The notes beneath the pieces are model-generated. The model worked only from the letters and a program-made list of their open reading frames with translations, ran no database searches and was not told the origin of the DNA. The position numbers and the translations under genes were made by a program. From contig DBAY01000024.1 in the NCBI GenBank assembly GCA_002291925.1, forward strand, positions 1,078 through 65,077: DNA of 64,000 bases. The letters run 5' to 3'. The stretch comes from Alphaproteobacteria bacterium UBA998 (GTDB lineage Bacteria; Pseudomonadota; Alphaproteobacteria; Rickettsiales; UBA998). Below, one piece after another: positions 7,144 to 10,100 of the stretch (positions are counted from its first letter, which is position 1; every line of letters starts with the position of its first letter).

Positions 7144-10100
7144 GCCGCTAGTGCGCCGACCTGTTTCAGGAAATCCTGTACCCCGCGCATTTTCTCTTTT
7201 TCAGTATTCCATGAAGCGGTGAGAACAAGCTTCTGATCGGCGCGGATTTTCATGCGGTTGGAGTTCTTCGCGATGAAGCCGATGAGGGCGTCGGCCTTGG
7301 GGAAGTGGTTGTTGTGGAAAGTGATGACCGCACCTTTCGGGCCAGTGTCGATGCGCTCCACGCACGCTGCGCGGCTGAACTGCTTGATGCGCATCACTTC
7401 AAGTAACGTCTGAACTTCCTGCGGCAGCGGGCCGAACCGGTCGGCCATCTCGGCGGCAAAGCTGTCGATATCTTCCTCCGACTGCAGGGTGGAAAGGCGG
7501 CGATAGAGGCTCAGGCGCAGCGTGAGGTCCTCGATGTAGTCCTCTGGAATCAGGACAGAAACGCCAAGGTTAATTTGCGGCGACCAGTCCGCATCCTCTT
7601 CCGGCGTAGCGCCCGGCAGCTTGGCGGCGCGGGCGGCGGCCACGGCTTCGGACAGCATCTGTTGGTACAGCTCCACGCCCACTTCCTTAATATGGCCGGA
7701 CTGTTCTTCACCCACCAGGTTGCCAAAGCCGCGTATGTCCATGTCATGGCTTGCCAAGGTGAAGCCTGCGCCGAGTGTATCGAGCGACTGCATCACCTCC
7801 AGACGGCGGGTGGCCTGATCGGTCAGCTTGGCATGATGCGGCAGGGTGAAATACGCATAGGCGCGCACCTTGCTGCGGCCCACGCGGCCCCGCAGCTGGT
7901 AAAGCTGCGCGAGGCCGAACATGTCGGCGCGGTTGACGATGAGCGTGTTCGCCGTCGGCACGTCGATGCCGGATTCTACGATGGCGGTGGAAAGCAGCAC
8001 ATCGAATTTGCCGTCGTAGAAGTCGTTCATGATCTGATCCAGCTCGGTGGCCGGAAGCTGCCCATGCGCCACGGCGAGGCGGGCGGAGGGTACCAGCTCG
8101 CGAATCTTGAAGGTCAGCTCGGCGATGTCGGCCACGCGGGGCGTCACATAAAAGACCTGCCCGCCGCGATGGATTTCGCGCTGGATAGCTTCTTTGATGA
8201 CCACCGCATCGTAAGGTAGCACGAAGCTGCGCACCGCCAAGCGATCCACCGGCGGCGTGGTGATGAGCGACAGCTCGCGCACCCCGGCCAGCGCCAGTTG
8301 CAGCGTGCGAGGGATGGGCGTGGCCGAGAGTGTGAGGACGTGGATATTGGCCTTCAGCGCCTTCAACGCCTCTTTCTGCTTCACGCCGAAATGCTGCTCC
8401 TCGTCGATGATGAGCATGCCGAGCCGCGCGAACTCCACTTGCTTCGAGAGAATCGCATGGGTACCGATGACGATGTCCACCGTGCCGTTCTTCAACCCCT
8501 CGCGGGTGGCCTTGGCATCCTTGGCGGAGGTGAGGCGCGAGAGCATCCGCACTTCCAGCCCTGTTTCCTCGAAGCGTTTGCGGAAGCCGCGGAAATGCTG
8601 GCGGGCAAGCAGGGTGGTCGGGCAGATGAGCGCCACTTGCACCGGCTTCACCGGGTCGGCGGCGGCGATGAAGGCGGCGCGCAGGGCCACTTCCGTCTTG
8701 CCGAAGCCCACATCACCGCAGATGAGGCGATCCATTGGCTTGCCGGTAAGCAAATCGGCCTCCACCTCGTCGATGGAGCGTTGCTGATCCTCGGTTTCGT
8801 CGTAAGGGAAGCGGGCGCAGAATTCCTCGTAGGCGCCGGGGGCGGCGTGGAGTTTGTGACCGGAACGAAGGGCGCGGGCGGCGGCAATTTTCATCAGCTC
8901 CTCCGCTGCCATGCGGATGCGCTCTTTCATCTTCGCCTTGCGGGCTTGCCAGCTTCCGGCGCCCAGCTTGTCGAGTTCCGCGCCGGTGGTCTCCTCGCCG
9001 TAGCGGGCGATGAGGTCCATGTTCTCGACGGGTAGGAAGAGCTTGTCGTCGTCCTTATAGACCAGCTTCAGGCAGTCATGGCGCTTGCCATGAACTTCCA
9101 TCGTCACCAACCCGTCGAAGCGGCCGATGCCGTGATCCTTGTGCACGAGCAGCTCGCCCGGCTCGAAGCTGGCGGCCTCCTGCAGGAACGCATCGGCGTT
9201 GCGTTTGCGCTTCTTGGTCTGGATGACGCGGTGGCCGAGAATGTCCTGCTCGGTATAGGTAATGACCTGCGGCGTCGCGAAGCCCTGCTCCAGCGGCACC
9301 ACGGCGGAATACAGGCCGGGGCGGGTGATGATGTCGGCCCATGAGGCTGCTTCTTTTAATGAAACGTCATTCTGCGAGCCCGAAGGGCTGCGCAGAATCT
9401 CCTTGCGATGTTGAGAGAGATCCTGCGCTGAGGCTTCGCCTCCCGCAGGATGACGGCGGGGTAACTGCTCCTCCAGCAATTGCGTCAGCCGCCCGAGCGA
9501 GCCATCCGTGGCGGCGGTGATGAGCACGGAGCGTCCCGCCTTCACCGATTCCCGCGCCTCCTCGGCGAGCAGGAAGAACGGCGTCACCTGCTGCTGCTTC
9601 GCCAAGCTGTAGAGCTTGCGCACGCCAGTGGTTTTCAGCTCCAGCGCCTTGTCGCCGCCGGAGAAGGGGGTGAGGTGGTAAAGCGGCTTGCGCTCCAGCT
9701 TCACCTCCAGCGCCACTTGGGTGAGGAACATCTCCTCCGGCGGCACGGGGTTATAAATGGCCTGCTTCTGCTTGAGGTTTATGGCCTCCTTGCGGGCGTG
9801 GTAGTAATCGGCGATCAGTTCCTGACGCTCCTCCAGCGTATGCCAAACATCATTGGCCAGCGCGATGACAGCTTCCGGCGCATATTCTAGGATGGAATCC
9901 GTGCGCTCAAAGAAGAGGGGCAGCCAGTGCTCCATCCCCGGCGTGTATTGCAGGCTGGAGACGCTGGCGTAGAGCGTGTCCTCCTTCCCCGGCACGCCGA
10001 AAAGCTGGCGGTATCGCTCGCGGAAAGTGGCGGCAGATTTTTCAGTGAGTTGAATTTCGCTTACCGGGTAGAGCGTCACCTCGCTGATTTCCTCGGTGGA

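Follow-up and report, generated by a model that had tools for sequence, protein, structure and literature searches.

How can a palindromic repeat of about 90 bp lie within the coding sequence of a repair gene, and what does its presence mean for the protein? In the window, i.e. the whole stretch of 64,000 nucleotides analyzed here, the gene in question is mfd (transcription-repair coupling factor), which occupies 7140 to 10718 on the minus strand with an intact reading frame of 1192 codons. As noticed in a preliminary description of this DNA, the reading frame stays open across the element (...QLPR-RHPAGGEASAQDLSQHRKEILRSPSGSQND-VSLKE...), and the product comprises the Pfam domains UvrB_inter, CarD_TRCF_RID, DEAD, Helicase_C and TRCF. 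On the mfd strand, the positions from 9455 down to 9366 are read as exactly 30 codons (CGT...GAC), where about 30 added residues had been estimated, and the encoded peptide RHPAGGEASAQDLSQHRKEILRSPSGSQND forms residues 421-450, numbered from the ATG at 10715. We consider it probable that a non-coding CGTC-tagged REP HH dimer entered mfd in frame and was kept as a tolerated passenger.

The extent of the element was determined from an alignment of 57 copies with their flanks, which showed sharp family edges (GTCATCCTGCG...CGCAGGATGAC). The base before GTC was C or T in 51 of the 57 copies (C in 30, T in 21), while the base after GAC was A or G in 49 of them. Based on these boundaries, the element including its tags comprises 9365 to 9455 with the core GTCAT...ATGAC at 9366-9454, and the range of 9365 to 9456 proposed before was right to within one base; the sequences of the element, of its intergenic copy and of the termini were found as described. 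Both copies in the window carry the CGTC...GACG tags, and the G+C content of the family is 61%.

The element consists of two REP units with the tags outside. The left unit (9365-9401) starts with the tag CGTC (9365-9368), followed by a basal stem of 8 bp (9369-9376 and 9391-9398; ATTCTGCG / CGCAGAAT), which encloses an apical stem (9378-9381 and 9385-9388) with a GAA loop, and it ends in the tail CTC (9399-9401). In its 5' arm, C has changed to T, and the 3' arm of this hairpin compensates with a change from G to A. A central spacer at 9402-9416, which differs in sequence between members of the family and measures 0 to about 30 nt, leads to the inverted right unit (9417-9455) with the tail GAG (9417-9419), the basal stem (9420-9427 and 9444-9451; ATCCTGCG / CGCAGGAT), the apical stem GAGGC / GCCTC and the tag GACG (9452-9455). 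In general, a unit comprises an unpaired C/TGTC tag, a basal stem of 8 bp, a variable apical stem of 4-5 bp and a short tail.

The element had been called a double hairpin, and this is backed by covariation among 40 copies. In the two-hairpin model, 95% of the cells were paired and double changes occurred in 163 cells; the basal columns 6-36, 10-32, 75-105 and 79-101 swap CG to UA jointly, and all 40 copies keep the AU and UA pairs of the basal stem unchanged. The minimum-free-energy structure, a cruciform with a four-way junction, was considered as well, but its outer-outer and inner-inner stems showed no compensatory changes and left 9-13 sequences unpaired. The covariation supports two separate hairpins rather than the cruciform. 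Compared to shuffled sequences, both copies in the window fold far more stably (z of -5 to -7, on either strand), with -50 kcal/mol and a z of -6 for the sense strand of the mfd copy. Searches with Rfam yielded no match at the element, neither at the gathering threshold nor at E values up to 1.

The second copy in the window is located at 14139-14225 (core 14140-14224). There, recG ends at its stop codon (14132) and a convergent gene for a sodium:dicarboxylate symporter at its own (14237), and the copy takes up most of the 104 nt that separate the two. Its whole-length match to the mfd element, described before, proved significant on formal alignment (83.7% identity over 92 columns, blastn E of 2e-19), and nhmmer assigned E values of 1e-25 to 1e-29 to the two copies. 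Neither nhmmer nor blastn revealed a third copy in the window; an 11-mer at 48138 was rejected as an isolated match within a gene. No terminator or promoter was found at the intergenic copy. The window holds further REP elements of other kinds. An intergenic dimer at 62756-62821 (GTCATTCCCGCGCAGGCGGGAATCCA ... with its inverted partner) is canonical and CGTC-1/dRS3-like, which shows that classical members of the superfamily are also present in this genome. In addition, four GTCA(C/T)-headed REP hairpins of other stem families form an intergenic cluster at 27526-27678, and an intergenic REP group at 4045-4137 (GTCATGCTGAAC... and GTCATTCCAGC...) is related to groups at 34115-34211 and 48718-48779.

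A comparison of Mfd with its orthologues identified the 30 residues as a lineage-specific insert. The loop from L414 to W459 comprises 46 residues here versus 14 residues in 70 of 116 orthologues; orthologues with 76-85% identity have no insert, and even an orthologue with 95% identity is free of this element. The preliminary description had placed the insert in a linker N-terminal to the RNA polymerase-interacting region. Mapping onto the structure corrects this, since the insert lies within an internal loop of domain D3, between the helix 404-417 and the strand 453-455. The Pfam RID (517-572) follows only after about 67 further residues, and the D3-D4 linker is found at about 494-506. In the AlphaFold model, the pLDDT is below 50 at 422-446 and residues 418-452 are modelled as coil, while the rest of D3 is confident. 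The peptide is accordingly predicted to be disordered. Since the D3 loop differs even among the closest orthologues, they define no empty site at nucleotide resolution, and neither the exact insertion point nor a small change of the target is fixed by them. The same loop is occupied by other, different repeats in P0002, P0003 and P0017, and the loop of P0017 holds a canonical CGTC dimer of 58 nt. Across the Mfd lineages, the inserts in this loop are unrelated in sequence and range from 21 to about 180 residues.

To what extent the family occurs elsewhere was determined by a pattern scan of genome contigs, which yielded 104 stretches, mostly from metagenome-assembled genomes (MAGs) labelled Rickettsiales or Alphaproteobacteria. 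On these stretches, nhmmer identified 65 copies, and a metagenome scan contributed 92 further copies, giving a total of 157 from two public samples; a subfamily-specific pattern scan of metagenomes gave 0 matches. Every full-length copy is a tags-outside dimer, and some forms have no spacer. One of the genomes with the family is UBA6178, a Candidatus Mitibacteraceae MAG. The Mitibacteraceae, in which this MAG labelled Rickettsiales is placed, are a free-living family.

For 25 of the 157 copies (13 + 12), a position in frame within real genes was confirmed by Pfam domains that either flank both sides of the insert or surround it, and the mfd copy raises the number to 26. Among the confirmed hosts are the genes for NrdJ, PolA, GyrA, UvrC, IlvD, Dxs and AtpG and seven tRNA synthetase genes. 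In eight to nine of the first 13 genic sites, the insert is located at a boundary between Pfam domains, and both orientations occur among the genic copies. The core lengths of the genic copies are 1 or 2 modulo 3 and never 0, and a model in which the insert is a multiple of three fails to explain them. GltX (L066) exceeds its orthologues by only 11 residues, but its element encodes 31, which indicates that some events were other than simple insertions. Pfam gave no support, at the element or around it, for several genic candidates (L073, L004:3-869, L177, L208, L209, L130/L158, L175 and L206), which were excluded; one candidate, with a VILR...RRMT peptide, was located upstream of the real LptF/G domain.

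The genic copies share their reading phase. All 26, including the one in mfd, are read in a single phase with ...CAG GAT GAC at the 3' end, and all 26 peptides end in [SP]Q[DNH]D, with (R)HPxG..AQD..SQDD or (L)SSCG..SQDD as recurrent forms. In 82 copies outside genes, the other phase without stops is open equally often (47 versus 43). Compared to the unused phases, with a GRAVY of -0.1 to -0.4 and a net charge of +2 to +3, the used phases give a GRAVY of about -0.65 and a net charge of -0.7, and the real genic peptides even reach -0.98 and -1.8. The phase-locked peptides are hydrophilic and acidic, and the phase lock would probably be caused by selection.

With its C/TGTC tag, the 8-bp stem starting with AT and the tags-outside dimer, the element belongs to the CGTC-tagged REP superfamily, which includes RPE-4 and RPE-6 of R. 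conorii as well as dRS3 of Neisseria (Di Nocera et al. 2013, PMC3733652), and the earlier term RPE-like is justified in this sense. The superfamily is defined by an unpaired CGTC tag (TGTC or CCTC allowed), a stem of 8-9 bp with A and T pairs at positions 1-2, a loop of 4-5 nt, a 3-nt unpaired tail (consensus CCA), mainly HH dimers and the lack of an adjacent dedicated transposase (PMC3733652). The tag, the stem and the tags-outside dimer form of the family agree with this definition, and the loop length departs from it. Compared to CGTC-1 to CGTC-4 (PMC3733652), the family shares the tag, the 8-bp stem starting with AT, the short tail and the HH dimers, alphaproteobacterial hosts, intergenic positions that follow genes or lie between convergent ones, and in-frame dimers of 20-30 residues, often in repair genes. 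The four published families have no linked transposase, and none was seen here in the window and 108 loci. The [GR][NH]D end of the published dimers corresponds to the same xAT-GAC phase. In contrast to the loop of 4-5 nt in CGTC-1 to CGTC-4, 13-17 nt lie between the basal arms here, and this region forms a covarying stem of its own with 4-5 bp and a loop of 3-5 nt. Since the loop length differs from the definition, we regard the family as new, or as a variant within the CGTC superfamily, outside CGTC-1 to CGTC-4. Instead of the consensus tail CCA, its 3-nt tail is mostly CTC, CTT or CTG, with CCA/CCC in few copies. The stem CCTGCG has no counterpart among those published CGTC stem sequences that were available for comparison, and mfd is absent from the published table of CGTC hosts (PMC3733652).

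Like the Rickettsia palindromic elements, the family recurs in frame in unrelated functional genes and encodes a conserved peptide. RPE-4 and RPE-6 (Ogata et al. 2000, 2002), which the literature assigns to the CGTC superfamily, lie in frame in housekeeping genes, partly at coincident sites (phosphomannomutase near residue 146; QueA), and the R. conorii dimers read SF(L/P)RK...R(G/R)ND, i.e. the same two phases as LSSC...SQDD. They differ in stem and loop and are AT-rich compared to the 61% G+C determined here, the likeness in sequence would be limited to the tag and the AT base pairs, and the link consists of the literature assignment and the peptide phases. Their hosts are obligate intracellular bacteria, whereas the hosts described here are uncultured and probably free-living. 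RPE-1 (about 106-150 bp; Ogata et al. 2000) is likewise palindromic and in frame, with a recurrent surface peptide and many genic copies, but is described as a longer single palindrome and not as a CGTC REP. The REPINs, which are mobilised by RAYT transposases (Bertels & Rainey 2011; PMC8049555), are similar in that the replicating unit consists of two inverted REP hairpins with a spacer, has covarying hairpins and causes no target duplication. Their tag is GTAG and a cognate RAYT gene lies between REPs, compared to the CGTC tag here, where no RAYT was found in the window and 108 loci, and REPINs are essentially extragenic. The dRS3/NIME elements of Neisseria belong to CGTC-1, and the element at 62756-62821 matches their pattern ATTCCC-N8-GGGAAT; unlike the family described here, they form clustered intergenic arrays that are targets of phage or IS, and we know of no in-frame coding copies of dRS3.

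How the element entered mfd can be pictured as follows. The repeat would be a palindrome that is self-propagating or passively copied, and one dimer would have entered the coding sequence after the split from the 95%-identical relative. Its survival there may have two causes. The surface loop of D3 that it struck is short and not conserved, and the dimer is read as exactly 30 codons in the single phase with ...CAG GAT GAC at the 3' end, which is free of stops and gives an acidic peptide, predicted to be disordered and rich in Ser, Ala, Asp, Gln and Pro. Since the loop is not conserved and the phase is free of stops and benign, Mfd with the insert is most likely still functional. The conservation of the remaining Mfd and the structure prediction suggest that the insert is neutral. 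A cut-and-paste origin from a classical MITE, a deletion derivative of an IS with a DDE transposase, would agree with the 11-nt terminal inverted repeats (GTCATCCTGCG / CGCAGGATGAC), the size of about 90 nt and the many copies. Nonetheless, we regard it as very improbable, since flanking direct repeats, the expected target-site duplications, are no more common than in permutations (k = 2-5), the terminal repeats pair with the internal arms and not with one another, two independent REP hairpins with a variable or missing spacer make up the unit, and no linked transposase was seen, as a motif regex over the window and 108 loci (about 0.8 Mb) found no RAYT-like ORF (HUH/Y1 motif). The family would rather spread via a hairpin-recognising enzyme acting in trans, without target duplication. 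That the similarity is due to chance, or that the assembly joined a repeat into mfd, can practically be dismissed. The only other contig with exactly this protein is 100% identical over 5.5 kb and hence not an independent assembly, so the junctions have no separate confirmation; against this stand the E value of 2e-19 for the pair, the frame kept exactly over 30 codons, the 25 analogous Pfam-verified cases in other assemblies and comparable published cases.

Two further readings assign a function to the element. According to the first, the insert was exapted: the D3 loop would alter the regulation of Mfd (autoinhibition or the hand-over to UvrA) and be positively selected, for example for tuning the mutation rate; a speculation of this kind was put forward by Di Nocera et al. 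for repair proteins with REP tags (PMC3733652). D3 has been proposed as a regulator of Mfd, proteins of excision repair and replication carry an excess of REP inserts according to the literature, the same trend is visible here (Mfd, UvrC, PolA, GyrA, NrdJ), and the D3 loop was struck independently in four Mfd lineages. However, the unrelated sequences and widely differing sizes of the inserts in this loop point to a permissive site more than to a selected function, and the element recurs in unrelated enzymes (for example tRNA synthetases, IlvD, Dxs and AtpG). In addition, its peptide is predicted to be disordered, and close relatives have no insert. Exaptation is therefore judged improbable. 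No more probable is an action of the hairpins in the mfd mRNA, as a translation pause or as a site of RNase protection or cleavage, with the peptide being incidental. The very stable sense-strand fold and the stem covariation would agree with it, as would the position of intergenic CGTC REPs, which mostly follow genes and are assumed to function as RNA (PMC3733652); the intergenic copy of the window lies between convergent genes. But a DNA hairpin required for propagation predicts equal covariation, the genic copies occur in both orientations, neither an Rfam match nor a terminator-like tail is present, and the strict phase filter places the constraint inside genes on the protein.

In consequence, the tolerated passenger remains the preferred reading, and what is new concerns the repeat family, its host lineage (MAGs labelled Rickettsiales, including a member of the Mitibacteraceae) and the host gene, as the phenomenon itself has already been described. 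The assumption that in-frame palindromes are peculiar to Rickettsia does not hold: dozens of cases are known in Opitutus terrae, Rhodopseudomonas, Sphingopyxis, Xanthobacter and others across several phyla, with an excess of replication and excision-repair genes among the hosts (PMC3733652), and in-frame fusions of MITEs are 'not unusual' according to a review of 2024. Mfd joins the excision-repair and replication proteins known with translated REP inserts, and its D3 loop is a permissive site that has been used by at least four different mobile sequences across lineages. The strict phase lock, which is visible in the published CGTC dimers too, provides a simple and testable rule for which insertions survive. 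For annotation there is a risk, as such inserts can be mistaken for lineage-specific features of a protein.

A heavy in-frame invasion of housekeeping genes, usually told as an oddity of Rickettsia, thus also occurs in G+C-rich environmental MAGs labelled Rickettsiales. It is conceivable, though rather doubtful, that the invasion of proteins by CGTC REP dimers goes back to the Rickettsiales stem, as an old trait of the whole lineage that preceded host association, with RPE-4 and RPE-6 as its AT-shifted descendants; this reading refers to about one sixth of the copies lying in frame in core genes, phase-locked to a benign acidic peptide, in free-living, G+C-rich basal relatives. If true, the habit of RPE-4 and RPE-6 would not follow from selection being relaxed in intracellular genomes.

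The palindromic sequences at 9365-9456, within the minus-strand mfd gene, and at 14139-14226, as intergenic partner, were found as in the preliminary description, and the mfd frame does stay open across the element, the ORF 7140-10718 comprising 1192 codons without interruption. At the element (9365-9455), the translation reads ...LLEEQLPR RHPAGGEASAQDLSQHRKEILRSPSGSQND VSLKEAASW..., and on the mfd strand the element fills exactly 30 codons, the first being CGT and the last GAC. Pfam assigned the full Mfd domain set (UvrB_inter 131-220, RID 517-572, DEAD, Helicase_C and TRCF). 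The proposed whole-length similarity of the two copies is significant, with 83.7% identity end to end, a blastn E value of 2e-19 within the window and nhmmer scores of 99 and 85 bits, while neither blastn nor nhmmer detected a third family copy in the 64 kb. Predicted folds of both copies were far more stable than shuffled controls on either strand. Altogether, the finding is real and was read correctly in kind.

With one genome taken per species, a pattern scan followed by nhmmer yielded 65 family copies (sample 1), of which 57 were aligned with 25-nt flanks. Conservation begins abruptly at GTCATCCTGCG and ends abruptly at CGCAGGATGAC. The base 5' of the element is C in 30 and T in 21 of these copies, the base 3' of it A in 25 and G in 24, and a weaker pyrimidine/purine preference was observed one base further outward. 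Although a four-way junction is the fold of minimum free energy, it had to be rejected since it is contradicted by the covariation in an alignment of 40 copies. Here, a model of two adjacent hairpins gave 95% paired cells and 163 cells changed on both sides, which none of 500 shuffles reached. All variable basal-stem columns switch together with a partner in the same half (columns 6-36, CG 32 and UA 8; 10-32, CG 27 and UA 10; 79-101, CG 30 and UA 9). For the same columns, pairing outer with outer and inner with inner arms showed no compensatory pairs and left 9-13 sequences unpaired. Since the covariation stays within the halves, each half is an independent hairpin. It consists of a (C/T)GTC tag, a basal stem of 8 bp, an apical stem of 4-5 bp whose sequence is free (with as many as four pair types at one position) and a short tail. 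The two hairpins are in inverted orientation, their tags outermost, and an unconserved spacer of 0 to about 30 nt lies between them. In several copies from the genome UBA6178 (loci L007, L085, L094 and L062), the basal stem of the right half has the same A·C mismatch (columns 75/105), which would read G·T (G·U) on the opposite strand.

In an alignment of 116 Mfd orthologues, the stretch L414-W459 comprises 14 residues in 70 sequences, compared to 46 in the window Mfd. The insert is lineage-specific as supposed: relatives at 76-85% identity lack it, and the 95% identical orthologue P0002 shows no trace of this element. An AlphaFold model based on the 116-sequence alignment (mean pLDDT 83) predicted a low-confidence coil at 418-452 (pLDDT below 50 at 422-446), which in the alpha/beta domain D3 follows helix 404-417 and precedes strand 453-455. 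Confidence next drops at 500-505, a stretch read from the model as part of the D3-D4 linker (approximately 494-506). Since the coil lies between a helix and a strand of D3, and the linker only further on, the insert is placed inside D3, about 67 residues before RID, and not in a linker N-terminal to RID as initially proposed. D3 is called non-conserved and lineage-specific in the literature.

The same D3 loop is occupied by other mobile sequences in three relatives. In the loop of P0002 (L106:3001-7131), about 180 residues are inserted in frame, among them a DUF559 (PF04480)/PF18741 endonuclease-like domain with G-rich palindromes on either side. This protein carries a further repeat-like insert of about 40 residues near residue 100, and its ORF is open for 1376 residues despite the inserts. 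P0003 (L107:3001-6585) shows a pair of G-rich palindromes, HPHPNPPPQAGEGF..., without the endonuclease-like domain. The distant P0017 (L109:501-4082, 56% identical) contains a canonical 58-nt CGTC REP dimer with 9-bp stems, 5-nt loops and a CCA tail, translated as PSLPGLSGQSMDYPNKSGND. Across the 116 orthologues, 13 proteins have private inserts of at least 18 residues at various positions; many of these inserts follow the 'SPSP..GEGWGEG' or '..PQDD' pattern, suggestive of translated repeats.

Insertion into genes is not restricted to mfd. Within sample 1, 15 of the 65 copies lie in long spanning ORFs, 13 of them confirmed by Pfam as real genes (NrdJ, PGM/PMM, GltX, MnmA, TrmB, AtpG, class-I LysRS, PheT, IlvD, UvrC, FolD, Der and Dxs). 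A metagenomic sample 2 comprised 92 copies with 22 genic candidates, 12 of them Pfam-confirmed: one duplicates the UvrC case, and the hosts are formyltransferase, LeuRS, PolA, PurL (two copies), AlaRS, QueA, IleRS, GyrA, NrdJ and LysRS. According to Pfam coordinates, the insert lies at a domain boundary in 8-9 of the first 13 cases. Phosphomannomutase, QueA, PurL, PolA and UvrC also appear in the published CGTC REP table, some with coinciding positions. The PurL gene at L115:1886-4165 contains two in-frame copies, and Opitutus terrae PurL likewise has two REP dimers in that table (PMC3733652). In NrdJ, a class II ribonucleotide reductase, both samples have the element at one position, around residue 625 (L095:991-4764 and L212:1-3495); one copy is of the long form, the other lacks the spacer. 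Either the insertion is old and shared, or the site is a hot spot. Compared to the window gene at 48786-50204, GltX at L066:312-1760 carries an element coding for 31 residues, yet the protein is just 11 residues longer than insert-free orthologues; the element seems to have taken the place of about 20 native residues.

In each of the 26 verified genic copies, the phase in use gives (S/P)Q(D/N/H)D at the 3' end, i.e. ...CAG GAT GAC, and (R)HP(A/V) or (L)SSC at the 5' end. Published CGTC dimers end alike (...GND, ...GHD). The VIL... 5' phase used by published CGTC-3 dimers is, however, absent among the genic copies here. The core (GTCAT...ATGAC) is 1 or 2 mod 3 long in genic copies and never 0 mod 3, a length found in one third of the non-genic copies. 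Stops alone cannot account for the bias in reading phase, since non-genic copies are free of stops in the alternative RRMT phase as often as in the QDD phase (47 versus 43 of 82). The used phases code for the most hydrophilic and the only acidic peptides, and those actually present in genes are still more hydrophilic and acidic than the used-phase average. We infer a filter at the protein level, although the bias may instead originate from insertion.

No target-site duplication was found at the element flanks, and a motif search of the window and 108 loci revealed no ORF resembling RAYT, the transposase of REPINs. Combined with the strong covariation of the hairpins, these negative results point to structure-dependent, duplication-free propagation acting in trans. 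For CGTC REPs in general, the mobilising enzyme is not known (PMC3733652).

MAGs from freshwater and other environments, labelled Rickettsiales or Alphaproteobacteria, supply the closest Mfd proteins and account for most of the genomes that bear the element. UBA6178, with about a dozen copies, has been placed in Candidatus Mitibacteraceae, a deep-branching, apparently free-living Rickettsiales family, in a paper that does not mention palindromes. Since the window proteins share merely 50-60% identity with these genomes, the taxonomic placement of the window itself is approximate.

The layout of the mfd element is that of the published CGTC-tagged REPs, among which CGTC-1 was equated with Neisseria dRS3, and CGTC-1 and CGTC-4 of R. 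conorii with the Rickettsia palindromic elements RPE-6 and RPE-4, respectively (PMC3733652). The single feature separating it from the four described families is the 'loop' of 13-17 nt, internally paired, instead of 4-5 nt; it is therefore filed as a new family in a known superfamily. Textbook CGTC REPs are also present in the window, all intergenic, for example GTCATTCCCGCGCAGGCGGGAATCCA at 62756, and GTCA(C/T)-headed REP hairpins of at least five other stem families form intergenic dimers or clusters (4045-4137, 27526-27678, 34115-34211, 48718-48779 and 62756-62821, the last being this textbook example and matching the dRS3-type ATTCCC-N8-GGGAAT). The mfd element is one more instance of a documented phenomenon. 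New are the variant of the family, the lineage and the gene that host it, and the clear rule on reading phase.
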